Origin: Escherichia coli
Lineage (GTDB): Bacteria > Pseudomonadota > Gammaproteobacteria > Enterobacterales > Enterobacteriaceae
Strand: one strand, 5' to 3'
Length of the DNA: 64,000 nt
Assembly (NCBI RefSeq): GCF_013122565.1
Contig: NZ_CP053258.1
Position 1 is the first letter of the stretch. Each line of letters begins with the position of its first letter. The notes under the pieces were generated by a model. That model saw only the letters and a program-made list of their open reading frames with translations, had not been told where the DNA came from and searched no databases. A program made the translations under genes and the position numbers. Below, piece after piece: positions 1,456 to 34,032 of this stretch.

Positions 1456-3456
1456 TCATCCTTTTTGCTGAAGCATGGGGAATAATTGTTCGCACAGCAA
1501 AACACCGTTATTCATTGCTTCTACCCGTGCCTCGCTTTCTGTATTACGAAATTGTCCCAACACATGTGCCAGCCGATAAAAAACCACCGCGGTGAGGTCA
1601 TTCGCCAGCAACTCTGCCTGACCAATAGCACTCTGTTCCTGATAGCGCCAGCCGTTATGGAGCAGTTGAATAAGTAACGCCTGGCAGCGCATCAGCAACT
1701 GATGAGCAGTAGACGGCACAGGCAGAACGCTGGCAGAAGGTAGCGGTGCCACAGGCGCAGTTTCTGCGTCCAGCGCCCAGGCGCGGGTTTTTGTCATCAT
1801 TACCCGTGGTTCCAGTGTCAATTGCCCATCAACAAAACTGACAAAGCCAGAAACCAGACACACGGGGTCCTCTGTTTGTTGCAAAAGCGCCGCCATGCGT
1901 TCAACGGCATAAGGCGCGCTGGCTGAGGCTGGTAGGGATAACGTCAGCACATTATCTTCCCCTTCGCCGCTAATGACCTGCGCATCCAGTGTCTGGCGGC
2001 TGCTATCCCAACCAAGCGAAATACACTCCGCTACCGGCAGAATAAATAAGTTATCGACCTGGTTGAGTGGTCGTATGCAGGCGGGGGGACGCTGGCGTAA
2101 ATATTCCCGCAAAGCCACAATGCCCGGCTGGCGCAACGGCGCGCTCAACATTTGCCAGGCGTCTGGCGACAACGGCACAACGCTGCTTAAGCGGTTGCGG
2201 GTAGCTAACAGCAGCTCGCCATCGGCACTGCGTTTTGCTGCTTGTGAAACAATTTGCCCACCTGCCAGTGCGCCAGCCTGAAAACTAAACAGCCGACGTT
2301 TTGCCGCGGGAGCGTTTTCTTGTTCGCTTCTCGGCCAACTACGCGAAAGATGCAAAATACTGCCGGTGTCGGGATCGGTGAACCAGATGCGTAAACCATA
2401 CTGCTCAATATCCTGCCAGCAACGCATACCTAAAGACACCAGCCGCAGATGATCAAGCTTTGCTTCTCCGGCAATGCCAGCGCCAACGACCGTGCGCCAC
2501 GGCACAGGAGGAACTTCACCGATACTGTCGCGCCGGGCCATCTCTTGTGCGCAATTTAATCGACTGTTTAATGCCGCAAGCTGACGTAAGCATTCTCCGG
2601 CATGATAGTGGCTGGCGCGGGCGTGGAAGGCATCAACGCTGGCGCGCAGTTGCCGTAGCGATTCACTCACCCATCGCCAGTTGCAGCGTTCCGCCGCCTG
2701 CTGTGCGCGGCTGAAAGCGGCCTCGTAATGGATTGGCGGCTGGCTGATGCCGCCCAGCCATAATGCCTGACTTAATTGCTGAACATATTGACGACACGCG
2801 TTGCCCTCTTCGCTGGCAAACGGATCGTCAGATGATGTGACGTGTTCGCTGCGCATCTGCCAGATTAAATGAGTAAATTCCGCTTGCTGAGTTTTTGCCT
2901 CGACGAAGGCCTGCACAGCCAGTACGACATGTTCGCAAAGTGTGCCGTCAATACAATCACAACGGGCGAAACGAATACTGCTGCGGGAATAAAAACGCAC
3001 ATCGCTCATCGGTAAGCGGGCAGAGGGAATTTCGCCCGGCGTACAGAACAACTCAATGGTGATGCCTTTAGCGACCAACGCCTGTGCGCGTTTGCGGGTG
3101 GCATCGGGAAGGGTAGCCAGTTCTTCCAGCCAGATTGCCGGATCCCACTCTTCTTCTTTTTCCGTGGGCTGAACGGTGGCACAAAGTCGTTGATAACTTA
3201 ACACCAGCATAACGCGATGACGGCACATGCCGCTGGCCCCGCAGGTGCACTGAGCCTCTTTCAGTGCCTGACCGTTCGCCAGCTGGGTACGGACACCGTC
3301 ACTGAAGGTGGCGATTAAAGCGCCGTTCTCATGGCTGATTTCCGGGACGTTGCCATTTTCCAGTTCCTTAAGGCTGCGCTTAACAAAACCGGCATTGCTT
3401 AACGCCGTCAGTGCCTGCGGTGTCAGTTCTAATAATTCCGGGCGTAGTGAATTCAT
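1456..3456 (-). CDS. yehQ: SWIM zinc-finger protein YehQ
   Basis: Two CxC...CxH motifs (CTCGASGMCRH, CDCIDGTLCEH); start chosen at MNSLRPEL so that ATG overlaps the yehP stop (ATGA at 3453-3456); start uncertain (ORF extends to 3480). Confidence 0.75.
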   Translation of the reverse strand: MNSLRPELLELTPQALTALSNAGFVKRSLKELENGNVPEISHENGALIATFSDGVRTQLANGQALKEAQCTCGASGMCRHRVMLVLSYQRLCATVQPTEKEEEWDPAIWLEELATLPDATRKRAQALVAKGITIELFCTPGEIPSARLPMSDVRFYSRSSIRFARCDCIDGTLCEHVVLAVQAFVEAKTQQAEFTHLIWQMRSEHVTSSDDPFASEEGNACRQYVQQLSQALWLGGISQPPIHYEAAFSRAQQAAERCNWRWVSESLRQLRASVDAFHARASHYHAGECLRQLAALNSRLNCAQEMARRDSIGEVPPVPWRTVVGAGIAGEAKLDHLRLVSLGMRCWQDIEQYGLRIWFTDPDTGSILHLSRSWPRSEQENAPAAKRRLFSFQAGALAGGQIVSQAAKRSADGELLLATRNRLSSVVPLSPDAWQMLSAPLRQPGIVALREYLRQRPPACIRPLNQVDNLFILPVAECISLGWDSSRQTLDAQVISGEGEDNVLTLSLPASASAPYAVERMAALLQQTEDPVCLVSGFVSFVDGQLTLEPRVMMTKTRAWALDAETAPVAPLPSASVLPVPSTAHQLLMRCQALLIQLLHNGWRYQEQSAIGQAELLANDLTAVVFYRLAHVLGQFRNTESEARVEAMNNGVLLCEQLFPMLQQKG

Positions 3457-4589
3457 GACTGAAGATTCTCCGCAAGCCATGATGCCAGCTCGCCCGGTGT
3501 CATGGCGGCTATTTGTGCGCCGATATTAACCAGCGCCTGGGCCGTATCGTGGTCATAGCAGGGTGTTGCGTTGCTATCGAGCGCCGCCAGTCCCAGCACT
3601 TTGATGCCGCTCTGGACACACTTTTTCACCTGATGCGTCAGCAATGATGATGAACCCCCTTCGTAAAAATCGCTCACGAGGATAATGACGCTTTTTGCTG
3701 GTTGTTCAATAAGTTGCCGACCATACTCCACGGCACTGGCGATATTGGTCCCGCCACCCAACTGTACTTTCATTAATAACTCTACCGGATCGGCAACGTC
3801 TGCCGTGAGATCAACGACGCTTGTGTCAAACGCCACCAGATGGGTACGAATGCCGGGTAACTGCCACAAACAGGCCGCCATCACCGCAGAGTGGATCACC
3901 GAATCGACCATCGAGCCGCTTTGATCAACCAGTAAGACCAGTTGCCATTGTTCGCTTTGGCGTTTAATGCGGCTGTTAAAGCGGGGGGATTCGATATACA
4001 ACTTGCCGTGTTGCGGGTGCCAGTGTTGCAGGTTGGCGCGCAGAGTACTTTTGAAATCAAAGTTTCGCGCCAGTGGAATAAATGAGCGGCGACGGCGATC
4101 GCGGACACCAGAAAAAGCCTGACGAACCTCCTTTGCCAGTTGTGCCATAATTTCTTCCACAACCTGGCGCACTATCCGGCGGGCGGCAGCCAGTACTTCG
4201 GGATTCATCAGATGTTTGGTGTGCAAAACGGCGCGTAGCAGGCTTTCAGAAGGCTGCATACGTTCCAGCACGTCGAGATTTGTCACCACATCTTCAATGC
4301 CGTAGCGCAGTACGGCATCGCTTTCCAGCCGCTCAATCACCTGTTGCGGAAACAGCGTGTGAATACTGTTGATCCACTCAGGAGTGGTGAGATTTGAGCC
4401 ACCTAATCCACCGGAGCGTTCACCACGCTGGAGCCGTTCAGGATCGCGCCCATACAGCCACTCCAGCGCGTGGTCTATCTGCCGGGCGTTGTCATCCAGC
4501 CCACAAAGCGTCGTTTCTGCCGCTTCGCCAAGAATTAATCGCCAGCGTTGTAGTTCACGGGTGGTCAGAAGATCGTTCAGTTCAGACAT
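3453..4589 (-). CDS. yehP: von Willebrand factor A domain protein YehP (378 aa)
   Basis: MIDAS-type DxSxS motif (LLVDQSGSM); ORF 3453..4817 trimmed to MSELNDLL start 3 nt after the yehM stop. Confidence 0.85.
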   Translation of the reverse strand: MSELNDLLTTRELQRWRLILGEAAETTLCGLDDNARQIDHALEWLYGRDPERLQRGERSGGLGGSNLTTPEWINSIHTLFPQQVIERLESDAVLRYGIEDVVTNLDVLERMQPSESLLRAVLHTKHLMNPEVLAAARRIVRQVVEEIMAQLAKEVRQAFSGVRDRRRRSFIPLARNFDFKSTLRANLQHWHPQHGKLYIESPRFNSRIKRQSEQWQLVLLVDQSGSMVDSVIHSAVMAACLWQLPGIRTHLVAFDTSVVDLTADVADPVELLMKVQLGGGTNIASAVEYGRQLIEQPAKSVIILVSDFYEGGSSSLLTHQVKKCVQSGIKVLGLAALDSNATPCYDHDTAQALVNIGAQIAAMTPGELASWLAENLQS

Positions 4590-6861
4590 GGAAAACTCCC
4601 CAGTGTTGCAGCGATGCCAGTGCCTGCTGTTCGAGTTGTTGATGATGTGCAATGGCTTGTGGTGGACAATGCAACGGCATTTGCAGAGCCGAAACGGGAA
4701 GTTGCGCCAGTTGATAATGTTCAAGCACCTGATGCGCCAGCGTCCCGCGTTCTCGTGGCGGTAGCCAGGCCATCGCCGCGCGTAAATCGGGCAGGGCATT
4801 GATAAAATCGGCATCACTTAGTTGATTTAAATGACTGCTGAAACCGGCGATAAATGCCGGCTGACAAGCCAGTTGATGACGGGCTAATGCCAGCAAACCG
4901 TGCAGCGCCTCGCCGGATTGGGCCGGGGATAACTGCGTCAGCATTGTCAGCGCCGCTTCGGCACTAGCGTTGGGATGTTCCAGACGCATCAGTGCGCCAA
5001 GAGTCGCGCCGCGATCCAGCGCCGGGGCATGAATCGCCTGACTGCGGCGCTCCAGTAAGGCTACCGCCGCAGAAAGCGAAACGCCGGATAAGTTAACGCC
5101 GCTATGTAGATCGCGCAGGATATGGCAAAGCGCTTGCCAGCTATGCAGGTGAGCGTGAAACTCCTTTTCATCCGGTCTGCCGTTGGATTCACACAGCCAC
5201 AGCGTGCGATCGATAGCCGCGCATAACGTCGTTTGTAATATCTGCGCGCCTTGCATACCGCTAATTTCATCCAGCCGCCATAAGGCATATAGCACTTCCA
5301 GCGCCTGGCCCATTTCGGCAAATTGATTTTCCTGGGCGATTAATAATGTGAGTTGTTCCAGTAATTGCTCACTAAAGCTCGCCAGGCCCGCTAACGCCGC
5401 CTGGCTAAGACATGCGGTAATGCTGCCGATTCCACCCGCGTCCAGCATATCGGCTTCTAATTTATTGCGTGCGGCTTCCTGGAGTGTTGCACCAAAGCAG
5501 GCGGCCTCAATCAATGCCGCATGCTGGCTAAGCGGGCGGGTTAATTTCCAGCGTTCTTCACCGTTGCCTGCAAGTGTCAGTGTACTTCCCTGCTGGCGTA
5601 CAATCCCTGGGATCTCCAGTATTGCCAGCCGATGTAACACCTGACTTTGCGCTAGTCCATTGGGGTTAAAGCGATTTAAGGTAAGCTGCGCCGGAAGAGA
5701 GATTCCGGTACGTTCCAGTTCGCAGGTGACATCTTTTGGCAGAGGCGGTTGTGGCGTGGAGGGGGCAAGTTTACCGAATCCGTCACCCGCTAATGTGTCT
5801 ATCAACGTTAGCAGAATCGGATCGGTATCGGGATGAATAACTCCGCGATAGCTCCACGGCAACGGCGCGTTCAAGGCTTCTTTAATCAGCGAGCCTGCTA
5901 TGGCATCCAGCCAGTCAGTGCGTAACGGTAGTGTATGACCGCGCAACTGTGCCAGCGCCATCACATGCAGATGAGCGGCAGCCATATCAGCGGTAGAAGC
6001 GGGCAATTTGTGCTGGCGCAAACGGGCAAGGATAGTTTTTAGCAGTTGTTCACCGGCCTGCTGTAAGCCCCACTGCCAGCACCAGTTTTGCCAGACCGGG
6101 GCAGGCATACCGGAAAGGTATCCAGCCAGCACATCAAGGCGCTTTTCACTGTAGGGGGTGAGATAACAACCTGTAACGGCATCTGCCAGCGACGGCAATT
6201 CTGGCGTGTTAATTTCCTGCGGACATTCGCGCCACATTTTTGCCAGTGCCGGAGCGTGCCAGCCACCGCAGACAACTAACACGTCGCCATTATTTTGCTG
6301 CATCGCCCATCCAATCCAGCGGGCCATAAAGGCTTCGCGCTGACGATTGAGTGCATCGCCGAGGAAATCGCCCCGCAGTTGGGCAAAATAGTGCGCCAGT
6401 GCAGAGGGTAATGCAGTTCGCTGGCTTTCATCTTCGAACAAGTGATCCCACAGGGTATCGCTGTTATCCATGCGGGTGGCACGCAGCAGCAAGGTCTGGC
6501 TTTCCTCTTGCGTATCAGGCGAATCGTCCTCTTCTTCACTCTGTGCCCAGCAAGGCAAATCGATGAAGTAAGTTTGTGCCTGAATACGACGAGCGGCTTG
6601 TAGCGCCTGCCACTCCGGCGAAAATTCAGCAAATGGCGTCCAGGCACCACGCCCGGGGGCTGCACCGTCCTGATACTGGCAATAACTGTAAATAGCTACC
6701 GGAAGCTGGTGGGCTAAAAACAGTTCGTCTACCCGGTCATTAAAATCAGCCGGGCCTTCAATCAACACGTATCGTGGCCGCTGGCTTTCGATTAACGATT
6801 TCACCAGCCGGGCGCAGGCCGGACTATGATGCCGGATGCCGACAATTAACAGCTCGCTCAT
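4582..6861 (-). CDS. yehM: Large protein of unknown function YehM (759 aa)
   Basis: ORF 4582..7029 trimmed to MSELLIVGIRHH start giving 759 aa; tightly packed in the yehL-M-P-Q string. Confidence 0.8.
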   Translation of the reverse strand: MSELLIVGIRHHSPACARLVKSLIESQRPRYVLIEGPADFNDRVDELFLAHQLPVAIYSYCQYQDGAAPGRGAWTPFAEFSPEWQALQAARRIQAQTYFIDLPCWAQSEEEDDSPDTQEESQTLLLRATRMDNSDTLWDHLFEDESQRTALPSALAHYFAQLRGDFLGDALNRQREAFMARWIGWAMQQNNGDVLVVCGGWHAPALAKMWRECPQEINTPELPSLADAVTGCYLTPYSEKRLDVLAGYLSGMPAPVWQNWCWQWGLQQAGEQLLKTILARLRQHKLPASTADMAAAHLHVMALAQLRGHTLPLRTDWLDAIAGSLIKEALNAPLPWSYRGVIHPDTDPILLTLIDTLAGDGFGKLAPSTPQPPLPKDVTCELERTGISLPAQLTLNRFNPNGLAQSQVLHRLAILEIPGIVRQQGSTLTLAGNGEERWKLTRPLSQHAALIEAACFGATLQEAARNKLEADMLDAGGIGSITACLSQAALAGLASFSEQLLEQLTLLIAQENQFAEMGQALEVLYALWRLDEISGMQGAQILQTTLCAAIDRTLWLCESNGRPDEKEFHAHLHSWQALCHILRDLHSGVNLSGVSLSAAVALLERRSQAIHAPALDRGATLGALMRLEHPNASAEAALTMLTQLSPAQSGEALHGLLALARHQLACQPAFIAGFSSHLNQLSDADFINALPDLRAAMAWLPPRERGTLAHQVLEHYQLAQLPVSALQMPLHCPPQAIAHHQQLEQQALASLQHWGVFHV

Positions 6862-6871
6862 GCATCTTTCC

Positions 6872-7960
6872 TCACGGCAGGCGGTGGCGGGCTTGATAAT
6901 AAGCCTGCCAGTGAGCTTCTTTATGTGTGGCGACTCGCTGTTCGAAGTAACGGCGCAGACGAGCGCGATCTTCTTCGTTATCTTTGACGATGGTTCCGGC
7001 AATACAGTCCACCAGATCGGCTGGCTCACCTGCGCGATTCGCTAAAAACCAGGCGCGGACGCCCACAGCGTGGGCCACGTTCACGGCTTCAGCGGTGGAC
7101 ATAATCGCTGTTAGTGTATCCATTGACGTTTTCTTTTCGCCGTTGGCACGCAGATCGCGGAAGGTGCGGACCAGTAACTCCAGTACCGCGTCAGGCACTT
7201 TATGCGGAATACCGCTATGGGCCAGCAAACGCGCCGAAGCACTGGCGACCAGTTCCAGCTCCTGAGCGAAATCCATAATCGGAAAGACAGTTTCAAAATC
7301 GAAGCGACGCTTTAGCGCAGCACTCATCTCATTGACGCCGCGATCGCGCGTATTGGCAGTGGCAATAATATTAAAGCCTTCCCGCGCATAGAGTTGACTG
7401 GCTTCACCAGTGAGTTCCGGCACCGTCATCACCCTGTCAGAAAGCATACCTAACAGACAGTCTTGCACTTCCAGCGGTGTACGCGTTATCTCTTCAAAAC
7501 GGACGATTTTGCCGTCGCGCATTCCCTGGTAAAGCGGGGCAGGGACCAGCGCTTCCGTTGATGGACCATGATTGATAAGCAGAGCGTAGTTCCAGCCGTA
7601 CTTGATTTGATCTTCAGTGGTAGATGCGCCGCCCTGGATGGTTAACCCGGCATCGCCGCTAATAGCGGTTGCCAGTAATTCAGACAGGAGAGATTTTGCG
7701 GTGCCCGGTTCCCCCACCAACATCAAACCGCGCCCGGTGGCAAGAGTGACTAACATACGTTCGACAGCAGAGGGACTAATCACGACTTTACGGCTAATAT
7801 TTTGCGCGCTATCGCCAAGGATAAAAGCACGTGCCGCAGGCAAACTTAACTGCCAACCGGGCGGGCAAGGTGCGTTATCATTTTGTTTTAATTTTGCCAG
7901 TTCATCGGCGTATAACACAGCGGCAGGCGGACGCTGCAGATGATTATTCTGCGGTGACAT
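6872..7960 (-). CDS. yehL: MoxR-like AAA+ ATPase YehL (362 aa)
   Basis: Walker A GEPGTAKS; ORF 6872..8026 trimmed to MSPQNNHLQ start giving 362 aa. Confidence 0.85.
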   Translation of the reverse strand: MSPQNNHLQRPPAAVLYADELAKLKQNDNAPCPPGWQLSLPAARAFILGDSAQNISRKVVISPSAVERMLVTLATGRGLMLVGEPGTAKSLLSELLATAISGDAGLTIQGGASTTEDQIKYGWNYALLINHGPSTEALVPAPLYQGMRDGKIVRFEEITRTPLEVQDCLLGMLSDRVMTVPELTGEASQLYAREGFNIIATANTRDRGVNEMSAALKRRFDFETVFPIMDFAQELELVASASARLLAHSGIPHKVPDAVLELLVRTFRDLRANGEKKTSMDTLTAIMSTAEAVNVAHAVGVRAWFLANRAGEPADLVDCIAGTIVKDNEEDRARLRRYFEQRVATHKEAHWQAYYQARHRLP

Positions 7961-8066
7961 ATATTCATCCCTGAAATGTATTAATGAAATAAACGATATT
8001 TTACGCGCAATAAATGTTTGGTGCATTAGTTGTTTGAGCGAAAAATATCTGGAAAGCAGATCACAG

Positions 8067-8152
8067 TAAATAAAAAAACCTGCTGGTGAGGCAGGTTCTT
8101 TTATTTACTACAGTGACGCTAACTTGCTGATTGTGCAACATTTCGTACCAAC
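8067..8152 (-). ncRNA. Putative antitoxin sRNA (OrzO/OrzP-like), divergent from toxin gene
   Basis: Minus-strand -10 TATAAT (plus 8159-8164) and -35 TTGCAA (8182-8187); 5' region (complement of 8133-8152) matches a direct repeat in the toxin 5' UTR (8298-8322); ends at hairpin 8078-8096 with T-run on minus strand. Boundaries approximate. Confidence 0.5.
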
Positions 8153-8181
8153 GAATAAATTATAACCATATCCACACTCCA

Positions 8182-8209
8182 TTGCAATTCAGTGAGTGAG
8201 ATTTATAAT
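8182..8209 (+). promoter_or_regulatory. Sigma70-like promoter TTGCAA-16-TATAAT for toxin mRNA; palindromic -35 shared with divergent sRNA promoter
   Basis: TTGCAA 8182-8187, TATAAT 8204-8209; predicted TSS ~8216 gives ~174-nt 5' UTR before ATG 8391. Confidence 0.5.
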
Positions 8210-8390
8210 CCTGCCCGTTGGGAGGTTGTGCCGGATCGGACCAATTTTAAGTCCTGGCTGCCGGACGGGTGGTGCCGCAGGCGGTGCCCTGATCCGGAGA
8301 GCAACGTTTCGTACCAACATACGTAAACCAGTATCGACAGGCAGTGTAAGGGTAAGGTGCTGGTGTTGCGCTCCTTAATAAGGAGAGCGG

Positions 8391-8480
8391 ATGGACACGC
8401 TGACACAAAAGTTAACCGTGCTCATTGCCGTACTGGAGTTATTAGTGGCTCTGTTACGGTTGATTGATTTGTTGAAGTAA
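8391..8480 (+). CDS. zorO: 29-aa hydrophobic type I toxin peptide (ZorO/ZorP-like), MDTLTQKLTVLIAVLELLVALLRLIDLLK
   Basis: AGGAGA SD at 8381-8386; single-helix hydrophobic peptide; matches my recollection of EHEC ZorO (not verified by search). Confidence 0.65.
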   Translation: MDTLTQKLTVLIAVLELLVALLRLIDLLK

Positions 8481-8503
8481 CGGGCAAATTGAAACGCATC
8501 TAA

Positions 8504-8526
8504 GGGGGAATACCGTTTCCCCCTTT
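8504..8526 (+). terminator. Intrinsic terminator after toxin ORF
   Basis: gggggaa-taccgt-ttccccc hairpin followed by TTT. Confidence 0.5.
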
Positions 8527-8674
8527 AATAAAATGATTACATCTTCCATTAATTCACCCGATAACTTTTTTCATATTTATAAATTCATCGATTTTATAAT
8601 CAACGTACTATTTGGCCGGGATGTGAATAATCATGGTGGGCTATTGGCGAAAAATATCTGGAAAGTAGATCGCA

Positions 8675-8761
8675 GAAAATAAAAGAACCTGCTGGTGAGG
8701 CAGGTTCTTTTATTTACTACTTTGATGTTAAGTTACTGATAGTGCAACATGGCATCTCAAC
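8675..8761 (-). ncRNA. Putative antitoxin sRNA, copy 2 (OrzO/OrzP-like)
   Basis: Same architecture as copy 1; pairing region is the complement of 8743-8763, cognate UTR site at 8908-8932. Confidence 0.45.
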
Positions 8762-8790
8762 GAACGAATTATAACCACCTCGGGGCCGTG

Positions 8791-8818
8791 TTGCAATTAA
8801 GATAATGAGATTTATAAT
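8791..8818 (+). promoter_or_regulatory. Sigma70-like promoter TTGCAA-16-TATAAT for toxin mRNA copy 2
   Basis: TTGCAA 8791-8796, TATAAT 8813-8818; ~175-nt 5' UTR to ATG 9000. Confidence 0.45.
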
Positions 8819-8999
8819 CCTGACTGTTGGGAAGTTGCGCCGGATCGAACCCATTTCAAGTCCTGGCTACCGGACGGGTGGTGCCGCAGGTAGTGCTCTG
8901 ATCCGGAGTGCAACATGGCGACTCAACATACGTAAACCAGTATCGACAGGCAGTGTAAGGGTAAGGTGCTGGTGTTGCGCTCCTTAATAAGGAGAGCGG

Positions 9000-9089
9000 A
9001 TGGACACGCTGACAAAAAAGTTAACCGTGCTCATTGCCGTACTGGAGTTATTAGTGGCTCTGTTACGGTTGATTGATTTGTTGAAGTAA
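9000..9089 (+). CDS. zorP: 29-aa type I toxin peptide, copy 2 (Q6K variant), MDTLTKKLTVLIAVLELLVALLRLIDLLK
   Basis: AGGAGA SD; one substitution relative to copy 1; O versus P assignment between the two copies is arbitrary. Confidence 0.6.
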   Translation: MDTLTKKLTVLIAVLELLVALLRLIDLLK

Positions 9090-9112
9090 CGGGCAAATTG
9101 AAACGCATCTAA

Positions 9113-9135
9113 GGGGGAATACCGTTTCCCCCTTT
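9113..9135 (+). terminator. Intrinsic terminator after toxin ORF copy 2
   Basis: Same hairpin as 8504-8526. Confidence 0.5.
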
Positions 9136-9270
9136 AATAAAGCTATACTCGTCATACTTCAAGTTGCATGTGCTGCGACTGCGTTCGTTCACCCCGGTCA
9201 CTTACTTTAGTAAGCTCCTGGGAATTCACTCGCTTATCGCCTTCCTGCAACTTGAATTATTTAGAGTATA

Positions 9271-9573
9271 TTATTCTATTTCTTGGTTGAATATATTCTG
9301 TAGTTCGCGATTAAAAATTGCTATTACCGTTTCAGGTGATTCACCTCGTAATTTCCGCTCATCAATACACTCATCTCTTATATAAATCAACGCATCATTT
9401 ATTTGCGGGTCGGCATCATTAAATGTTGGATGTAGCCGGAATCGCTCCAGCCGGTAGACGGAACCTGTAAATAATTCAGAGCATTTATGGATCTCAAGTC
9501 TGAAGGAAAACGGATCTTCAGGTACAGGGACCTCATAATCGTAAATAGCAACCAGCTCTTTTTGCACGATCAT
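9271..9573 (-). CDS. yehK: Small protein YehK
   Basis: 100-aa ORF directly downstream of yehI on the same strand; true start may differ slightly. Confidence 0.6.
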   Translation of the reverse strand: MIVQKELVAIYDYEVPVPEDPFSFRLEIHKCSELFTGSVYRLERFRLHPTFNDADPQINDALIYIRDECIDERKLRGESPETVIAIFNRELQNIFNQEIE

Positions 9574-9632
9574 CGCTTTCCCGTTGGTAAGTCGTGTTGA
9601 AAACGGGCAGTCGCATCACTGCCCGTTGTGTT

Positions 9633-12600
9633 TTAATGGAAAATGACGTCGGGTGCGCTTAACGCCTCACTCAAATCAAACACATCAAGTTCGGCAAAAG
9701 TGACGGATTTATTGTCACGGTACACTCGAAGAGAACGGAAGCTCATTAACGCTTTGCTATCAACATTGTAGTGGTTAAAACCGGGTGAAAACTTAAGGAC
9801 CAGCCGGTACTCGCCCAGGTCATAGACAAATGCATCCTCATAGCCTGACTCCCAGCCTTTGTATCGCATTCCCATAAGCTGCCCAACGGTAGCGGATTTA
9901 CCTTCCCAGCGAGTCAGGCTGTTACTGGTTGACTCGTCAGGTGTGAGCAGCACCGTGCGGCGCGACAACTGGCGAAAAGGCGGCATAATTTCGTAATCGG
10001 CAAAAAGCTGTGCAAATTCACTGCGCATTTCTGCTGTCATTTCTAACGGGTGGGCAATGCCAATCAGAGCATCCGCAGGCAGGTCAATGGGCTCATCTTG
10101 CGCATTGCAGAACTCACCCTCTGCGGCCACACGAAAGGCGTTGAGTAAACGACGCGGTTCATTTGCTGGATACACGCCCCATATTAATCGCTGAGTAACC
10201 AGGCGGGTAAAGGGATGATTAACAAACAGAGAATGAAAATCTGCCAGCGACCAGCGTCGGGTGGTACGTAGGGCTGCTTCAAGACGCGGGAGCAGGTTTT
10301 TGCTCACCTGGGTGGCATCTTTTTTTAGCCCTTTTAGTCGGGCCAGTGCCTCGGGCGCTTTCAGTTGATCGTCATCGGCGCGCAACCGGGGAACACTTTT
10401 CTGGCGAACGTTTTGTTGATCAAAGATAACCGGGTTGAGGTTTTCATCGAAGCGAACGGTAAACTGCCGGGGACCAAAATCAAAAATCAACGCCTGCGGA
10501 TCATCAAGACCCAGTGTTGGGACTAATCTGTCCGCTAACTCTTCCTGGCTTAGCCCGCGATTTTCTGCGACCACCTGAAGAAATTCCGCTGCGTTTTCAC
10601 GTAATGAAGAGGATTTCGCCCGTTGTGATACATGATGCAGCTGTATCAGCGCCATATCATTATTCATCAGGGTAAGTATATTCAGACCACTGACAGCACG
10701 GGCAGATTTGCCTTCTTGTGGCCAGGCGAGGATCTGTGTCGTTAGATCCCGTGCCGTGCTTTCGTCACCAAAGAGACTTAACGCCAGAAATGCCCAGTTG
10801 TCTTTTGCGGGGGCACCAGCTTGTTGCCAGGCGGTGAAGAGATCCCAGGCAAAAGCTGCCAGCGTTTGCGGCTGGCAGAACGATTTCAGTTGTTCCAGTC
10901 CGCTATAAAAACGTCCCCCCTGGGTAAAGCGCAGCATTTCGCCGATAATTTCCAGAGCGTCATCGGTAACAGGTTGATTATTAGTGATAAGTCGAGGCCT
11001 GGACCACATTGCCGGATGCCAGAAATCAGGGGCTTTTGGAATGCGTGCCGGGTAAATCTCTATTTGACTCTGTTTAAGTAATTGTTCCAGGGCAGGCCAT
11101 ACATCAGCGCGATCCCAGCGGTTTGCCACGGTTTGTAGTAATACGCCATGTCCCTGTTCATACAGTAAACGCAGGGCAAGTAATGCAGCTTCGCTATTAT
11201 CGCTGGATTTGGTGAAGACAAGAGGGATAAGTGCAGTAGCCGTATGTTCCGGCCATTGTAAAATCCACTGGCGGGCCAGATCACGCTGCGCCGCGAAACG
11301 TCGCCAGACGCGGGCAACAGGCAGGGCCAGTTCTGTTGCGCCAAAATGAATCAGCAGAGGAAATATCTCTTTTGGATGTCGGGCAAAGGCGGTGTTTAAT
11401 CCAGGCAAAGCATCGGTACCCAGCACACTTAACAGATATTCCCCCCCGGTGTAATGAAAATCAGCCTCGACAATTTGTTGCCAGCACGATACCGCCATTT
11501 CGTGCGGCATCTGCGCGATAAGGTACAGATTCCAAATCCCCCAACGCTTTTTATTACCATAGTAAAATCCGTGCTGAAAAGTTCGCCACCCTCCCATCAG
11601 CGCAATGCTATCTTGTGCCAGTAATGCTTTGGTGGCTTCTTCCCGGTACTGTTTAGATTTGGCCTGATACGCGTGATAAGTACGCAATAGTCCTATTGAT
11701 GTGTATTCTTGCAGTTGCTGAGCATCAAAGGCATCCAACTGTCCATGAAGAAGACGCTTATTAAATTCCAGGCTATGAACGTCAAAACCTAATTCCCGCA
11801 AGAAGGTATCCGCCCCTCTCTTAGCAAGACGTTCGTCAAAAGACATGGCGCTAAAATGGTCAATTGCAGTTTGCTGTTCCGGCGTCCAGTGTTTATTCGG
11901 CGACCTGTACGTTTGCGGTGCAAGCGTAAGATCAGGCAGCGAAAAGTGAGGTATGGAAGTCTTTTTCTTCCTCCCACGCCATGGTGGTGAAACGAGGATT
12001 TCAGGCATTTGGCTGTTATCGGTACTATCAATAACCGGTTTGGGCGGTGCCAATAAATAACTATTCAGTACTGCCCGGGCTTGAGTACTTAACCACTGCA
12101 TCACCTCTTCTGCCAGTTGTGGCTGCGATGCCATCAGCGTTTGTAACAGCGTACGCCAGTATTCATCTCGAGCTTTTTGCTGGGCAGGCAGCTTTTTGTC
12201 TTCGATGATTGGATAACCAGGGCGGGCTGGTGGTTCTTTTAACGCCAGCAGTTCTGCCAGTGCCGCGAGCGTCGCGTGGGGGAAGTTTTTACTGTATTTA
12301 GCCACACGTTGCAGGCTGGGTTTGTTTTTATCAGCCACCAGTAGCAAGGTGCGGATGACCTGCGGATGGTTAATTTGTACCAACAGACTGCCGCAATCTT
12401 CTTTATGGGCATACATCGCGAGGCGCGGAATGGCTGCCAGTCCTTGTTCGCGCAAAAGGGCGGCGCAGGCCGCGTAGCCGAAGTGGTTTTCATGCGACAT
12501 GTAGCTGGCTTCGCGATCGCTAAATATATCCTGACTCCAGTAGTGATCGAGTTTCCTCACCGCTGTGGGGTCATTAGCAACAACTTTTAGCCACTCCTTA

Positions 12601-13280
12601 GAATGATAATGAGTCCGTGGGCATTCAAGGCCTATCAACTCATTGGCGATTTCTGGTTTTTCCGGGAGGATCAGCGCAATAAAAGGGCGGCGAACTTTGG
12701 TTATTCCTGGCAGTGCGGCAATGAGTTTGTCGGCGCAACGCTGCCAGCAGCTTTCCTCTGCCAGAGAGAGATGCTTACGCAGTCGGAGATCGAATTCGTT
12801 ATAGGTTTCTGATCGATAACCATAGCCATAGTCCTCGTTCTGATACTGCAATGTCACTACCAGAGGATCACTCTCATAACACCGCGCAATAAACTGGCGT
12901 GCAATCACCACCTCAGTCGCATATTCCAGCCCCTCTTGTTGGACGATTTCGTCGAGTAACTGTTGGCTGTCATTTTGCGCGATACAGGCTAGCGCCGCCA
13001 TTGTCCGGGCCGGGATTGAGGGTTTGTGTTCGCCGATCAAGTTGATGGCCTGCGTGATGGCGGACTGCCACTCCAGTGAAAAATTCTCATAACGCCAGAC
13101 AATGTTTTTTTTCTTCTCAGCTTTTTGTAGCAATTCATCACCCAGTGTCTGAATGATGCTTTCAGTGATAACAGGCACTGGTTCGCCCGGCCAATTGCGA
13201 TGGCTGAGTGGTGTTTTGCCTTTTTTATATTTCAGTTCCAGTTGGGCGTTATCCGCCAGCCACGGTAATTCCTTGTCCAT
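9633..13280 (-). CDS. yehI: YehI, 1215-aa paralog of the molR family lacking the N-terminal WGR-like domain
   Basis: C-terminal two-thirds align with the four upstream paralogs (shared AWP..K.A..GL.IL, DRL.P.LGLD, LLPPFRQL blocks); AAGGAA SD 9 nt after upstream stop. Confidence 0.85.
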   Translation of the reverse strand: MDKELPWLADNAQLELKYKKGKTPLSHRNWPGEPVPVITESIIQTLGDELLQKAEKKKNIVWRYENFSLEWQSAITQAINLIGEHKPSIPARTMAALACIAQNDSQQLLDEIVQQEGLEYATEVVIARQFIARCYESDPLVVTLQYQNEDYGYGYRSETYNEFDLRLRKHLSLAEESCWQRCADKLIAALPGITKVRRPFIALILPEKPEIANELIGLECPRTHYHSKEWLKVVANDPTAVRKLDHYWSQDIFSDREASYMSHENHFGYAACAALLREQGLAAIPRLAMYAHKEDCGSLLVQINHPQVIRTLLLVADKNKPSLQRVAKYSKNFPHATLAALAELLALKEPPARPGYPIIEDKKLPAQQKARDEYWRTLLQTLMASQPQLAEEVMQWLSTQARAVLNSYLLAPPKPVIDSTDNSQMPEILVSPPWRGRKKKTSIPHFSLPDLTLAPQTYRSPNKHWTPEQQTAIDHFSAMSFDERLAKRGADTFLRELGFDVHSLEFNKRLLHGQLDAFDAQQLQEYTSIGLLRTYHAYQAKSKQYREEATKALLAQDSIALMGGWRTFQHGFYYGNKKRWGIWNLYLIAQMPHEMAVSCWQQIVEADFHYTGGEYLLSVLGTDALPGLNTAFARHPKEIFPLLIHFGATELALPVARVWRRFAAQRDLARQWILQWPEHTATALIPLVFTKSSDNSEAALLALRLLYEQGHGVLLQTVANRWDRADVWPALEQLLKQSQIEIYPARIPKAPDFWHPAMWSRPRLITNNQPVTDDALEIIGEMLRFTQGGRFYSGLEQLKSFCQPQTLAAFAWDLFTAWQQAGAPAKDNWAFLALSLFGDESTARDLTTQILAWPQEGKSARAVSGLNILTLMNNDMALIQLHHVSQRAKSSSLRENAAEFLQVVAENRGLSQEELADRLVPTLGLDDPQALIFDFGPRQFTVRFDENLNPVIFDQQNVRQKSVPRLRADDDQLKAPEALARLKGLKKDATQVSKNLLPRLEAALRTTRRWSLADFHSLFVNHPFTRLVTQRLIWGVYPANEPRRLLNAFRVAAEGEFCNAQDEPIDLPADALIGIAHPLEMTAEMRSEFAQLFADYEIMPPFRQLSRRTVLLTPDESTSNSLTRWEGKSATVGQLMGMRYKGWESGYEDAFVYDLGEYRLVLKFSPGFNHYNVDSKALMSFRSLRVYRDNKSVTFAELDVFDLSEALSAPDVIFH

Positions 13281-13289
13281 GCTCTTTCC

Positions 13290-16200
13290 TTATTCAAACA
13301 GGGCTTCAATATCATTAATTAACTCGCTGGTGGTGATGGCATCGAGTACGGAGAACTGCGCTTCCTGAGTTGAATTATTCCTCCAGCCATAGCTTTCTGC
13401 TTTGCCTTCCCATAGCCACAGCTTGCTTAAGAGCTGCTCGGCGCTAAGTTCGGCTGGCGACATACCCACAGCAAAGCCTTCATCGATTTCCATGATTAAC
13501 GACCAGCGGCCCAGGGGTTTGATCATCCAGCAGATCCAGCCTCCATCCTGTGGTTCGCCCTTTATCCAGCCTTTATTCGCCAGCCCCATGACCCGACCAC
13601 TCGGGCATTTTCTGCCTGCCCAGCGGGTCAGTTCGCTGGCGTTGCGCTCGGCTTCTGTCAGGGCGTAACTGTTACGGTCAAGCTGACGGAACGGTGGTAG
13701 CAGTTCGTAGTCGGCAAAAAGCTGACCAAAGGCGGCAGCATCCGTCGGTGATATTTCCAGAACGTGAGGAATACCAATAGAGATATCGCCTTCCGGCAGG
13801 GTGAAAAGATCATCGTCAGCGGTGCTGTAACTGTTATCTTCCGCCACGCGAAAGCACGCCAGCAGCTGGTTTTCGGCGCTATAAACGCCCCAAATCAGAC
13901 GACGGGTTAAGTGGCGAACCAGCGGGTGCTCAACCAGGAAAAGCTGAAAGTTTTCCGGCGACCAGCGGCGGCGCAGGCACATGGCGGATTCCAGCCTTGC
14001 TACCTGCTGGGCGGCGACGGTACGCGCATCTTTTTTCAGCAATTTGTAGCGGTTTACCGCCTCATCAGCCCGCGATTCATCATCGCTTTTATTGGGTTTA
14101 GGTAAGTCTTTCAGGCGGCTGCCGGAAACATCACGCACAAACGGTTTTAAGGTTTCATCAAAGCTGACGGTGAACTGGCGTGAGCCGAAATCCAGCAGCA
14201 ACGAACCGTTATCATCCAGACCGAGATCCGGGGCCAGGCGATCTTCTAGCTCCGCCACCGTGAGTTCGCGGCTTTCGGCAATGTCGGCAATTTTTTCTTT
14301 TGCCCGCTCCTGTAATGCTTTGAATTTCAGTTTCTGGGCGATGCCGTTAAGTTGCATCAAGGCGATATCACTACCGATAGTGGCGAGAATATCCAACCCA
14401 ACGGTGGCGCGTTTATGCTGGGATTCACCAGGCCAGGCACGGATTAATGGCGTCAGTTTGCGGGCGGTGTCATCGTTACCGAGAACACCTAACGCGTTGA
14501 ACGCCCAGCTCTCTTTCGACGGCGCGCCAGCGGTCTGCCAGGCGGTAAACAGATCCCAGGCAAATCCCGCCAGTGAGTCGGGGGTACAGGCATCTTTCAC
14601 CTGCAATAATCCCGGATACAGTGCCTCTTCCTGAGGGAAGCGGAGCATTTCACCGAGGTAGAGTAGGGCGCTATCGGGCAGTGATTGGGCGTTTGCTTTT
14701 AATACCGGGCGCGTCCAGAGCGATGGCTGATAAAAGGCCGGAAGAGTGGGGATTTTTGTCGGGTGATTATCTAAGGGATCGAGCGCAAGCAGAGCGTTCA
14801 CCGCGTCTGTTACTTCCGGCTGGTTATAACGCCGGGCGATTTCTTGCAGTAATGGCTGATGACCGTTTTCGGTAAGCATACGCAAGGCAGCGCGGGCGTT
14901 ATCCTGTGCTTCACCGGCTTTGCCGAGCGCGGCAGGCAGCAGGCCGGTAATGGCGTGTTCCGGGTATTTCAACAGCCAGCTACGGGCGTCTTGTCGTAGG
15001 GTTTTGAGTTTGTTGAAGGCGCGGGCAATCAGTGGCGCTAATTCGATAGCCGCAAAATATTGTGCTATAGGCAGCGCTTCTTGCGGATAGCGAGATGCTG
15101 AGTGGATAAAACCTGTTAAACCAGCAAGTCGAAGATGCAACATTACTTGTTTTGCACCTGTATGTGGTTCTTTACTAAGGATGTTCCACATCTCGATAGC
15201 TTTATTAATGGGTAAAACATGGAGTGAAGAAAGATTCCATTCGCCCTGATAAGGGGAGTTATAGGACTTAAAAGCATCAATCAGCGCTGAATAATCTTCA
15301 CGCTGCCAGGCATCCAGTGCTATTTCTGGAACATCAATATAGCCTCTATGTTTGTTCCAATCCCAGCGGTTGAATCCCAGGGAGGTCAGAAAAGCTTTTT
15401 CTCCCTCAGCTTGCTGATGAGGTTGCCAGTTATGCTGCACTTGCAGTGTTTTGCTTTTTGTTTCATTTATTGTACAGAAGGATTCTAGGGATAATGGTGC
15501 TAAATCCAGCACCGAAATCGTCGATTTTTTCTTTTTAGCCAGCCAGGGCGGTGAGATTAGTACGGCAGGCAGCAAATCGGCGTTCGCATAAACTGAAGGT
15601 TGTGTCAGTTGTTGCAGGCATGACTTAAGTTCGGTAACCGCCGGAGCAGATAGCCAGGGAATTACCTGCTCTGCTAATGTTGGTTGTGAGATAAGCATTG
15701 TCATTAGCATCATGCGCCAGCGCTTTTCATCTTTTTGTGCCAGAAGTTCTGCTAATGCCGCCAGCGCTGCATGTGGAAAGCGAACGAAAGCCTTTGTCAT
15801 GCGATCGTGGCAACGCTTTCCCTGCTCGCTTGCATGGATAAGTAGTGTAAGTGCCTGGGGGTGGTTGATATGCATCAACACTTCCCCACATGTGTCACCA
15901 GCAGCGTAAGGAGCAAAACGGGCCAGCGCAGCGACACCTTGCTCCTTGAGTATCGTTGCACACCAGATTTTACCGCCGTAATAATCATCAAATACCTGCC
16001 CAGGCTGTCCTGGATAGTATTTTCCCAGTTCTGCCAATACCTGCTCGTCGGTGGTCGTCAGTTTCAGCCATTCCAGCGCATATAACCCTTTTTGTCCACA
16101 AAGATGTCTGGCAATCTCATGAGCTACTTCTGGTTTTTCCGGCAACAATAGTGCAACCAGTGGCTGGTGCCACGTGGGCATGGTTCCGAGAGCGGCAATC

Positions 16201-17048
16201 AGTTTGTCGGCGCAGCGCTGCCATACATCGTCATTTGCAAGTGAGAGATGCTTACGCAGGCGCATTTCAACCGAAGCGAAGCGTAACAGATAGCCAGGCT
16301 GCCTGTTATCCGGGGTAACCGTAATGAGATGGGCATCATAATCCCAGTCGAAGCGGATGAATTGCAATGCAATGACAACCTCAGTGGCATATTCCAGACC
16401 ACCTTCCTGGACAATTTGATCCATTAGCTCTTCATGATCGTTACGATTGAAGCCTTGTTCCAGCGCAACCAGTACCGCCAGAACCATCGGTGGTAGCGTG
16501 GTGCTAATTGGCGAGTCGATAAGGCCTACGGCTTGTGTAATTGCCTGCTGCCAGTCCAGTGAACAGGTGCTGTAATCGAAGGTGAGCACCTTTTTAAAAC
16601 GCCGGTGAGTATTCGCGGCGACGGAGCGTAGCAGGGTTAATTCATTCTCCTGTGGCACAGGAGCGCCAGGCCAGCGTCGATGACTTAGTGTGGTTGGCGC
16701 AACCTCTGTCGGTAAAATGATTTGGGTGTCGTCTGCCAGCCAGGGGAGGTGGTCTCCAGTAAATGCCGGTTTGTCTTGTGGCAAAGGGGTTATTTCCGGG
16801 CATTCGATAACCTTGCCGGGCGCAGATGTCGGTGTCATCACGGATACTTCTTCTACGTAGCCCTTTTTTGTTTTCTCCGTAATCAGCTTCAGTTCCGCTT
16901 TTTCCGCCGCTGCAGCATCTGCAAAGCTTTTTACCTGGCTTTGCCCGTTAGTACCGACTTTGCCCCAGGTAATATGCAGCTCGTTTCCCTGCTGCTCCAC
17001 CGCCCAGAATTTATGTGATTTTTCATCCTGATAAATATAGGTTTTCAT
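13290..17048 (-). CDS. MolR-family protein, paralog D (1252 aa), N-terminal WGR-like domain
   Basis: Intact ORF; N-terminus MKTYIYQDEKSHKFWAVEQQGNELHITWGKVG; start 12 nt downstream of paralog C stop with AAGGAA SD. Confidence 0.85.
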   Translation of the reverse strand: MKTYIYQDEKSHKFWAVEQQGNELHITWGKVGTNGQSQVKSFADAAAAEKAELKLITEKTKKGYVEEVSVMTPTSAPGKVIECPEITPLPQDKPAFTGDHLPWLADDTQIILPTEVAPTTLSHRRWPGAPVPQENELTLLRSVAANTHRRFKKVLTFDYSTCSLDWQQAITQAVGLIDSPISTTLPPMVLAVLVALEQGFNRNDHEELMDQIVQEGGLEYATEVVIALQFIRFDWDYDAHLITVTPDNRQPGYLLRFASVEMRLRKHLSLANDDVWQRCADKLIAALGTMPTWHQPLVALLLPEKPEVAHEIARHLCGQKGLYALEWLKLTTTDEQVLAELGKYYPGQPGQVFDDYYGGKIWCATILKEQGVAALARFAPYAAGDTCGEVLMHINHPQALTLLIHASEQGKRCHDRMTKAFVRFPHAALAALAELLAQKDEKRWRMMLMTMLISQPTLAEQVIPWLSAPAVTELKSCLQQLTQPSVYANADLLPAVLISPPWLAKKKKSTISVLDLAPLSLESFCTINETKSKTLQVQHNWQPHQQAEGEKAFLTSLGFNRWDWNKHRGYIDVPEIALDAWQREDYSALIDAFKSYNSPYQGEWNLSSLHVLPINKAIEMWNILSKEPHTGAKQVMLHLRLAGLTGFIHSASRYPQEALPIAQYFAAIELAPLIARAFNKLKTLRQDARSWLLKYPEHAITGLLPAALGKAGEAQDNARAALRMLTENGHQPLLQEIARRYNQPEVTDAVNALLALDPLDNHPTKIPTLPAFYQPSLWTRPVLKANAQSLPDSALLYLGEMLRFPQEEALYPGLLQVKDACTPDSLAGFAWDLFTAWQTAGAPSKESWAFNALGVLGNDDTARKLTPLIRAWPGESQHKRATVGLDILATIGSDIALMQLNGIAQKLKFKALQERAKEKIADIAESRELTVAELEDRLAPDLGLDDNGSLLLDFGSRQFTVSFDETLKPFVRDVSGSRLKDLPKPNKSDDESRADEAVNRYKLLKKDARTVAAQQVARLESAMCLRRRWSPENFQLFLVEHPLVRHLTRRLIWGVYSAENQLLACFRVAEDNSYSTADDDLFTLPEGDISIGIPHVLEISPTDAAAFGQLFADYELLPPFRQLDRNSYALTEAERNASELTRWAGRKCPSGRVMGLANKGWIKGEPQDGGWICWMIKPLGRWSLIMEIDEGFAVGMSPAELSAEQLLSKLWLWEGKAESYGWRNNSTQEAQFSVLDAITTSELINDIEALFE

Positions 17049-17060
17049 TGCAAATTCCTT

Positions 17061-20897: not shown

Positions 20898-20909
20898 TGC
20901 AAATTCCTT

Positions 20910-24650: not shown

Positions 24651-24662
24651 TGCTAAATCCTT

Positions 24663-28469: not shown

Positions 28470-28577
28470 TCTGCATCCCTGTAATTTTATCCAGTTGAAT
28501 GCAGATGCTACCAGTATTTATGCGGGTTAGAGAGAGACAAAATCGCAAGAAAACAACTTTAGGAATTTATAAAGAAA

Positions 28578-30643: not shown

Positions 30644-30774
30644 AGTAGGCATTACTTCTTAATAGTGAAAAGGGGTTAGATAGTACCAAATGGGAAAATG
30701 TTAAGTAAGTACTTCTCTATATTCTTCAGGTAAACTATCAGCTGATGGTTTATCTATACAAAAAAGGAGTCGGG

Positions 30775-31884: not shown

Positions 31885-31912
31885 CGCCTATTAACCATTC
31901 TGGTTATTCTTC

Positions 31913-31956
31913 ATACACCGCAGAGATGTTACATTGATGCGGTGTATTTGTTTTTG
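31913..31956 (+). terminator. Probable mrp terminator
   Basis: tacaccgc...gcggtgta stem followed by tttgtttttg. Confidence 0.4.
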
Positions 31957-32146
31957 CCGCATTAATGAACACTTATTTAATACTGCGAATATTCTGCGGA
32001 CCTTCGTCCGAAACTCTACAAAGTCGATTGATCATACAGGCAATGCGTCATTATCATCCTTCGTGGCTGTGTAGTGGATGTACAGCTATAGTTTGTTATG
32101 CACTCATTCTATCCAGGCATAACCTTTACTACAGGGATAACGTTCA

Positions 32147-32428: not shown

Positions 32429-32460
32429 TTTGGCAACCTGATTTTAATTGCATTTAGAAA

Positions 32461-32496
32461 GCCGAAATCATTTATATAAATGATCTCGGCTTTTTT
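32461..32496 (+). terminator. Intrinsic terminator after yehE
   Basis: gccgaaatcattta/taaatgatctcggc hairpin followed by TTTTTT. Confidence 0.45.
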
Positions 32497-34017: not shown

Positions 34018-34032
34018 TTGCAGGAGCTGCCT

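Follow-up and report, generated by a model that had tools for sequence, protein, structure and literature searches.

The genes yehL, yehM, yehP and yehQ of Escherichia coli, examined here in a 64,000-nucleotide (nt) stretch of contig NZ_CP053258.1 (assembly GCF_013122565.1; hereafter the window), very probably form a single system with the neighbouring genes for DUF4132 proteins. We propose that yehLMPQ encodes the invariant core of an ATP-driven five-component machine, the fifth component being a WGR-DUF4132 protein present in one to five tandem copies, and we judge the chances of this proposal to be even. Surveillance against invading or damaged DNA is its most likely role. The genes were already known as open reading frames (ORFs) and YehL as a named MoxR subfamily; the five-component architecture, the assignment of a TIKI fold to DUF5682, the RPA-like module of YehQ and the allelic cassette of the DUF4132 proteins were absent from the literature searched. 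An earlier note on this DNA, made from the sequence, had stated that no function is established for these genes, and the literature agrees with it: DUF5682 was not mentioned, and DUF4132 was mentioned but never with regard to function.

Gene order and junctions in the window

The components of the proposed system, with lengths in amino acids (aa), are arranged as follows.

1456-3456, minus strand: yehQ, 666 aa, SWIM and tandem OB-fold protein
3453-4589, minus strand: yehP, 378 aa, CoxE-type vWA protein with a complete MIDAS
4582-6861, minus strand: yehM, 759 aa, DUF5682 protein
6872-7960, minus strand: yehL, 362 aa, MoxR-class AAA+ ATPase of the YehL subfamily
9633-13280, minus strand: yehI, DUF4132 paralog 5, 1215 aa, without a WGR domain
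13290-17048, minus strand: DUF4132 paralog 4, WGR and DUF4132
17061-20897, minus strand: DUF4132 paralog 3, WGR and DUF4132
20910-24650, minus strand: DUF4132 paralog 2, WGR and DUF4132
24663-28469, minus strand: DUF4132 paralog 1 (the first, molR), WGR and DUF4132; the four WGR paralogs have 1246-1278 aa each
28477-28496, minus strand: LexA (SOS) box AACTGGATAAAATTACAGGG, 7 nt 5' of the ATG of paralog 1

RefSeq labels the four core products as ATP-binding protein, DUF5682 family protein, vWA domain-containing protein and SWIM zinc finger family protein. All four genes lie on the minus strand within the span assigned to them by the earlier note, co-oriented with the paralog array, and the Walker A, MIDAS and two SWIM motifs were found where it had placed them. 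When the junctions were read directly, the TGA of yehL was separated from the ATG of yehM by a 10-nt spacer (GGAAAGATGC) that includes GGAAAG, yehM and yehP shared an 8-nt stretch (ATGTCTGA), and yehP and yehQ had ATGA in common, a 4-nt overlap. The sequence bears out the ATGA overlap that had been described before; the yehP start, which had been put 3 nt past the yehM stop, instead lies within the 8-nt overlap, so that the coupling is tighter than claimed.

Conserved linkage of five components

A profile built from 20 aligned YehM homologues was used to scan one genome per species for 100,044 species. Relatives of YehM were detected in 328 species, and 80 loci were retained from Enterobacterales, Burkholderiales, Xanthomonadales/Lysobacterales, Neisseriales, Myxococcales and other Deltaproteobacteria, and Actinobacteria. 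Their ORFs were searched with the window proteins and then with hidden Markov models built from the first matches, and linkage was counted in the 62 loci with enough flanking sequence, which represent Gamma-, Beta- and Deltaproteobacteria and Actinobacteria. All 62 loci have YehL, 61 have YehP and 59 have YehQ; in 58, one or more DUF4132 genes are adjacent, most often with a WGR domain. One DUF4132 copy occurred in 40 loci, two in nine, three in eight and four in one. The earlier note had asked whether MoxR-vWA-SWIM genes co-occur with DUF4132 genes across bacteria, and had suggested that yehLMPQ and the molR/yehI paralogs make up one multi-component machine; the co-occurrence in 58 of 62 loci from four classes answers the question, and the conserved linkage supports the suggestion.

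The order DUF4132(n)-L-M-P-Q was nearly universal. A DUF4132 gene was located 3' of yehQ in Burkholderia, and on a Sinorhizobium conjugative plasmid it lay between yehM and yehP, that is, inside the operon. A distant Proteus branch, whose YehM is 28% identical, keeps all five genes, and the linkage is also kept in Glycomyces. On the Serratia, Variovorax and Glycomyces contigs, precomputed Pfam annotation gave WGR+DUF4132, AAA_5, DUF5682 and VWA_CoxE, followed by a SWIM or unlabelled protein. The spacing was similarly tight, with a 4-nt overlap of P and Q in 59 of 75 loci and of M and P in 48 of 79, an L-M distance of at most 12 nt in most loci, and less than 100 nt between the DUF4132 stop and the yehL start in 48 of 63, including a 4-nt overlap in five. 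Clustering of the remaining flanking ORFs yielded no sixth conserved gene and no family that extended beyond a single genus, which argues for a module of five components that moves as a unit.

The same counts bear on the idea that the DUF4132 array is independent of yehLMPQ and only happens to be its neighbour in Escherichia. Such a view would draw on the 1.3 kb between the two gene groups in the window, taken up by yehK, two type I toxin-antitoxin modules and an ERIC-like element, on the occurrence of orphan DUF4132 genes, and on the four of 62 loci without a DUF4132 gene within 10 kb. It is close to refuted, and we consider it extremely improbable, given linkage in 58 of 62 loci in four classes, with a gap that is usually below 100 nt or a 4-nt overlap, and given the position of the Sinorhizobium gene within the operon.

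Several variant loci were seen in the course of the survey. In a Nocardia strain (L085, 10001-18694), an orphan DUF4132 gene of 731 aa with no LMPQ genes within 10 kb adjoins ResIII/DEAD and SNF2 helicase genes. Betaproteobacteria bacterium MS502 (L055 and L061, about 7850-13830) has a 289-aa ORF between yehL and yehM and, past yehM, an unrelated ORF of 405 aa; yehP, yehQ and DUF4132 genes could not be recognised there. Apparent fusions of DUF5682 with AAA_5, VWA or SWIM domains in the protein database were single-member clusters more than 94% identical to E. coli, and were for this reason treated as frameshift or assembly artefacts.

YehL and YehP as motor and adaptor

YehL matched Pfam AAA_5 (E 2.6e-34) and, marginally, bpMoxR (E 0.0021), carries the Walker A motif GEPGTAKS at 7691-7714, and typifies one of the seven MoxR subfamilies that are recognised (PMC3893208). 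Its Walker A, Walker B (RFEE), sensor-1 residue N203 and the arginine-finger pair R218/R219 were invariant in 81 of 81 homologues. The gene for a vWA partner, yehP, is located two genes 3' of yehL, as expected of a MoxR gene. YehP matched VWA_CoxE (E 5.8e-72), its vWA domain ending at residue 372 of 378, and has the MIDAS sequence DQSGS at 3912-3926; the MIDAS residues D222, S224, S226, T281 and D307 were invariant in 78 of 78 homologues. Profile searches confirmed AAA_5 and VWA_CoxE for the motifs called earlier and gave weak Pfam support for SWIM in YehQ (E 0.0013 and 0.12). With NCBIfam, only weak generic AAA/vWA matches were obtained, of YehL to GvpN-type ATPases and of YehP to cobaltochelatase, and YehM, YehQ, YehK and YehI had no match. 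As judged from the alignments, motif conservation in YehL, YehP and YehQ across related genomes is far beyond chance, and the conserved residues indicate that YehL and YehP are an intact motor and adaptor. The ratios of nonsynonymous to synonymous substitution rates (dN/dS) relative to K-12 (0.04 for yehL, 0.13 for yehM, 0.08 for yehP and 0.12 for yehQ) indicate that all four genes are under strong purifying selection.

In its motor-adaptor logic, VWA_CoxE family, intact MIDAS and translational coupling, the pair resembles CoxD-CoxE, NorQ-NorD, CbbQ-CbbO and RavA-ViaA. Those chaperone pairs adjoin the genes of client enzymes, whereas yehLMPQ has no conserved client operon; they are also without SWIM/OB, WGR or TIKI-fold partners, and the YehL subfamily is separate from RavA and CGN. 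The combination of an AAA+ ring, a MIDAS-vWA protein and a very large partner is likewise found in BchI-BchD-BchH, CobS-CobT-CobN and midasin (Rea1), AAA_5 being the dynein/midasin-type domain. Unlike in these three, motor and vWA domain are on separate polypeptides here, and in comparison with Mg-chelatase and cobaltochelatase, DUF4132 and DUF5682 have no homology to BchH or CobN and no tetrapyrrole genes are nearby.

These likenesses raise the question of a dedicated maturation chaperone, the function of most MoxR-vWA pairs so far characterised, Mg-chelatase included. It would insert a metal or cofactor into a client enzyme or activate it, with the DUF4132 proteins as clients or carriers. 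The CoxE-type family of YehP and the weak NCBIfam matches of both proteins would fit, the experimentally studied MoxR-vWA pairs listed in PMC7159879 and PMC3893208 are all assembly factors, and the old name 'molybdate metabolism regulator' would agree if the molybdate phenotype belongs to the present molR gene. No target enzyme or cofactor-pathway gene is conserved beside the system, however, and its flanks vary by genus; the SWIM, tandem OB and WGR domains indicate nucleic acid rather than a metallo-enzyme, and hypervariable clients would be unexpected for a housekeeping chaperone. Among the possible roles, that of a classical cofactor-insertion chaperone is the least likely because no client is conserved nearby, and we regard a maturation chaperone as improbable.

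Predicted fold of YehM

YehM matched Pfam DUF5682 (E 1e-96). An AlphaFold2 model computed from an alignment of 20 homologues (predicted local distance difference test score, pLDDT, 82.4; predicted template modelling score, pTM, 0.75) predicted a TIKI/TraB/ChaN/EreA-fold domain in the N-terminal ~240 aa (about 6142-6861) and an alpha-helical solenoid of ~500 residues in the remainder. The predicted N-terminal domain has an alpha/beta fold with a parallel sheet core, as in ChaN, Bcr135/136, HopBA1, PMT and RRSP, and the matches to the modelled fold include PMT (7.5), RRSP (7.4) and EreC (7.1). The matched structures constitute the TIKI superfamily according to the RRSP paper, in which active members have a 2His/2Glu site, where a His-Glu pair adjoins core strands one and two and another His lies distally (PMC6254334). 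YehM has the invariant R10-H11 after strand 1 (residues 4-9) and the invariant E35-G-P at the end of strand 2 (31-37), and a strand at 194-199 leads into the invariant C198-G-G-x-H202; besides H11, E35 and H202, residues E143 and E176 are also invariant. In the model, H11, E35 and H202 lie beside the expected strands, a placement that fits the active-site layout of the family, and YehM is a probable peptide- or ester-hydrolase, its catalytic activity being inferred from this layout.

The earlier note had found no nameable motif in YehM. With the predicted TIKI/TraB-fold domain and its invariant His, Glu and His, the protein is motif-less no longer; sequence profiles return DUF5682 only. Compared with the superfamily (Tiki, TraB/PrgY, RRSP, erythromycin esterases, ChaN and HopBA1), YehM has no detectable sequence-profile relation, adds the ~500-residue helical solenoid, is cytoplasmic and is operon-linked to an AAA+ motor.

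Architecture of YehQ

YehQ consists of SWIM zinc finger 1, a SWIM-like motif 2, a four-helix bundle, a tandem OB module and a C-terminal helical bundle. Both SWIM motifs, CTCGASGMCRH (3217-3249) and CDCIDGTLCEH (2929-2961), have the form CxCx5CxH, and RefSeq still names the protein for its SWIM zinc finger in spite of the weak Pfam matches. An alignment of 20 diverse YehQ sequences showed the first motif without variation in all of them; its two actinobacterial members and one deltaproteobacterial member have lost the second.

The structural model of YehQ (pLDDT 88.9, pTM 0.86) placed the tandem OB-fold module at residues ~330-560 (about 1777-2469). Foldseek searches against the PDB retrieved tandem-OB DNA-binding modules over 226-290 aligned columns, among them RPA70 DBD-A/B (1jmc, E 8.4e-4, probability 0.99) and the MNDA HIN domain (probability 1.0), with further matches to baculovirus LEF-3, fungal RPA, CST and POT1. 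The matches to RPA70, HIN, POT1 and CST were obtained by two independent methods. Sequence identity to these tandem-OB binders is 8-11%, and YehQ differs from a stand-alone single-stranded DNA-binding protein in its added SWIM fingers and helical bundles. From the modelled fold, YehQ probably binds single-stranded nucleic acid, and a link of the system as a whole to nucleic acid appears fairly probable.

Hypervariable cassettes in the DUF4132 partners

The five DUF4132 genes of the window occupy 9633-28469. The five-gene array was found in none of the 5426 complete E. coli genomes searched, the best coverage being 68%; other strains have two to four copies. A WGR-type N-terminus of ~66 aa is 91% identical among the four paralogs that have it, YehI being without one. 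In this domain paralog 1 differs from the others mostly by synonymous changes, and paralogs 3 and 4 differ at 8 of 66 codons; the WGR-coding region of the latter two has 95% nt identity, the first ~165 nt being identical. The middle of the paralogs (residues ~100-850) is 18-35% identical, and the C-terminus 45-74%. Paralogs 2 and 3 (17061-24650) have 97.8% nt identity over the C-terminal ~1 kb against 55% in the middle, a contrast that implies a mosaic history. Together with the likeness of paralogs 3 and 4 in the WGR-coding region, it suggests that members of the array have exchanged cassettes or undergone gene conversion.

The Pfam DUF4132 match on the C-terminus of paralog 1 (E 3e-51) spans 180 of the last ~450 residues, a region rich in invariant W, G, D, H, R and P in 76 proteins of other taxa, across phyla. 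When the DUF4132 C-terminus was searched as a profile against the PDB, nothing was retrieved beyond a PPR match at chance level. WGR domains were present on 70 of 100 linked DUF4132 ORFs, and Pfam records WGR+DUF4132 on the Serratia and Variovorax orthologues.

The gene yehI is 86.5% identical to that of K-12, with a dN/dS of 0.34. The divergence is limited to residues ~420-660 of YehI, where identity to K-12 is 27-60%; elsewhere it is 93-100%. This cassette allele of ~240 residues (about 11301-12023) was matched at 80% query coverage or more in 48 of 5426 E. coli genomes, and the remaining genomes align to it at the edges only. The DUF4132 partners thus evolve unlike L, M, P and Q, which are under strong purifying selection. 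The swappable, hypervariable cassette suggests that the DUF4132 proteins are exchangeable, fast-evolving specificity or sensor subunits.

In K-12 MG1655 (L004, 6475-20945), one DUF4132 copy is intact and the first paralog is split into yehF and a yehH pseudogene; yehQ encodes 614 aa against 666 in the window. With a broken first paralog and a short yehQ, K-12 is probably a poor model for the system. In a sublineage of sequence type 131 (ST131), a resistance transposon is inserted in the array (PMC9334617).

SOS box and a possible role in DNA repair

The LexA box upstream of paralog 1 (AACTGGATAAAATTACAGGG) has the form CTG-N10-CAG and the same sequence in K-12 and strain S56, and Klebsiella grimontii has a similar box in the same place. 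An SOS box is already on record for E. coli molR (PMC6590174), whose promoter is also activated by BglJ-RcsB (PMC3950696). Depletion of DdrO in Deinococcus derepresses the radiation/desiccation regulon, and the genes for a DUF4132 protein and a WGR protein are among those most strongly affected (PMC8533742). In Escherichia, the receptor array would accordingly appear, from its promoter sequence, to be under LexA (SOS) control.

These data also bear on an alternative in which the machine is induced by SOS for DNA-damage tolerance or repair and has no part in immunity. The OB module of YehQ and the WGR domains would bring it to breaks or single-stranded gaps. Proteins stuck on the DNA would there be pulled out or unfolded by the AAA+/vWA pair and degraded by YehM, much as a protease coupled to an AAA+ unfoldase would clear stalled complexes or DNA-protein crosslinks. 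Besides the known SOS box of molR, which is present in the window, and the strong induction of DUF4132 and WGR proteins in the DdrO regulon, the RPA70-like tandem OB module of YehQ, the core status of the locus in E. coli with purifying selection on L, M, P and Q, and the SNF2/ResIII helicase genes beside the Nocardia orphan speak for such a function. It would leave the one to five mosaic paralogs and their hypervariable allelic cassettes unexplained, however, and the system is patchily distributed (328 of ~100,000 species), unlike core repair pathways. The array is moreover disrupted without obvious cost in the successful ST131 lineage and broken in K-12, and the LexA box is limited to Escherichia and Klebsiella. 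We regard a pure repair machine as a tentative but serious possibility.

Proposed mechanism and biological role

In the proposed five-component machine, YehL would be a hexameric MoxR AAA+ motor and YehP its vWA adaptor, whose MIDAS metal site would hold an acidic residue of the client. The SWIM zinc finger and RPA70-like tandem OB module of YehQ would anchor the complex on nucleic acid, which is probably single-stranded DNA. The WGR-DUF4132 proteins would dock through their conserved C-terminal ~450 residues, with the WGR domain providing a second nucleic-acid contact, and YehM, a probable peptide- or ester-hydrolase of TIKI/TraB fold joined to a helical scaffold, would be the candidate output. 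A signal on DNA, or one bound by the variable cassette, may trigger ATP-dependent remodelling by YehL and YehP, at the end of which YehM would be activated or a substrate presented to it.

Recognition under conflict usually shows itself in this way, as a constant machine whose partners diversify, duplicate and recombine, and we place a conflict or immunity-like role somewhat ahead of pure repair. One form of it, an innate-immunity-like machine in the core genome of E. coli, is put forward as a speculative and rather unlikely model. In it, an SOS-controlled array of WGR-DUF4132 receptors with swappable hypervariable cassettes would sense foreign or abnormal DNA, or proteins on such DNA, and would signal to a MoxR-vWA motor that the RPA-like SWIM protein anchors on single-stranded DNA and that would then arm a TIKI-fold protease. 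If true, it would represent a new MoxR-vWA conflict class with accessory parts unrelated to the four described.

The closest comparison is with the ternary systems of Kaur et al. (2020), in which the third component is a VMAP, an inactive STAND, an FtsH or a beta-propeller protein and effectors are fused to the vWA protein (PMC7159879). As in those systems, MoxR AAA+ and CoxE-derived vWA genes are coupled here to sensor or effector components, one component diversifies rapidly, a peptidase-type output is a candidate, and the genes are enriched in large-genome soil bacteria (actinomycetes, myxobacteria and betaproteobacteria). Unlike in those systems, the defining third components had no match in any of the eight proteins, and YehP has no C-terminal effector. 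The Kaur paper mentions none of SWIM, WGR, DUF4132 and DUF5682 (PMC7159879), and SWIM and WGR are likewise unmentioned in a 2026 BREX survey. The earlier note had linked MoxR-vWA pairs to conflict systems dependent on nucleoside triphosphates; the pair itself is present, and the link goes no further than analogy, as the third components are absent and there is no PADLOC match.

A number of observations weigh against an immunity-like five-component machine as proposed. None of the eight proteins had a match to a PADLOC-DB v2 model at an E threshold of 0.01. The yeh locus was matched in 5425 of 5426 complete E. coli genomes, with coverage of 80% or more of the 9.7-kb query in 5180 of them, at ~96% identity, and in the 5425 genomes it occupies one fixed site between housekeeping genes. 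A fixed core site with purifying selection on LMPQ is unlike the typical mobile, sporadic defence islands. The system is also almost absent from phages and true plasmids: YehM relatives occurred in 38 of 72,556 plasmid records, many of which are mislabelled chromosomes or megaplasmids, in one of 50,697 phage records and in one IMG/VR contig. Taken with the SOS box and the Deinococcus data, the fixed core position and the purifying selection on LMPQ fit a DNA-damage role equally well. The LexA box in turn was absent in Serratia, Erwinia, betaproteobacteria and the other loci, occurring only in Escherichia and Klebsiella, so that SOS control is not general to the system. As to the unity of the machine, orphan DUF4132 genes without LMPQ nearby were found in the Nocardia strain and on a metagenome contig, and in Escherichia the array is kept apart from yehLMPQ by yehK and 1.3 kb, which may mean separate transcription.

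The assignments of YehM and YehQ have counterpoints of the same kind. OB folds bind proteins and sugars as well as nucleic acid, and ChaN was deposited as a haem-binding protein. No sequence link of YehM to TraB, ChaN or Ere proteins was found, Pfam giving DUF5682 only in 20 of 20 members, and NCBIfam searches with ten N-terminal domains (E up to 10) and a PDB profile search returned no TIKI-family match; membership in the TIKI fold is supported with the predicted fold as its sole basis. TIKI-fold proteins are not all enzymes, PMT being without a catalytic motif (PMC6254334).

The genes concerned are of unknown function in the best-studied bacterium and occur in essentially every E. coli and in 328 or more other species, and the proposed machine provides a first concrete, testable model for them. 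The broken locus of K-12, with its pseudogene for the first paralog and truncated yehQ, would explain why studies in K-12 may have missed it. Proof of an immune or repair function would extend the MoxR-vWA family by a new architecture and give roles to three large DUF families.

Intervening region and flanking genes

Further features of the window lie between the array and yehL or beyond the array.

8072-8145 and 8681-8754, minus strand: OrzO-P RNAs (Rfam, 89 and 90 bits, respectively)
9000-9089 and 8391-8480, plus strand: toxin ORFs of 29 codons, MDTLTKKLTVLIAVLELLVALLRLIDLLK and the same with Q6, respectively
9271-9573, minus strand: yehK, small ORF of 100 aa between yehI and yehL
28610-30652: metG, beyond the paralog array

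Homologues of yehK were limited to Escherichia loci in the set searched, and its membership in the system is doubtful. The slot between the DUF4132 gene and yehL, which yehK occupies here, holds unrelated small ORFs of 145 aa in Variovorax (L003, 8387-8824) and 56 aa in Glycomyces (L086, 9533-9703). Just 3' of yehK, at about 9140-9240, lies what we take to be an ERIC/IRU-like enterobacterial repeat (gtgaattcccaggagcttac...aagtaagtgaccggggtgaacg). A simple promoter scan identified no promoter for yehL. The yehK-yehL spacer contains two tandem type I toxin-antitoxin modules of zorO/orzO type (8072-9089), each bordered by divergent promoter-like sites; in K-12 the same spacer is only 306 nt long.

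On the other side of the array, the metG-yehB flank (28610-36500) is 99.1% identical to E. coli strain PT62, from a pigeon, and 95-99% identical to most strains; these identities suggest a divergent Escherichia lineage as the source of the window.

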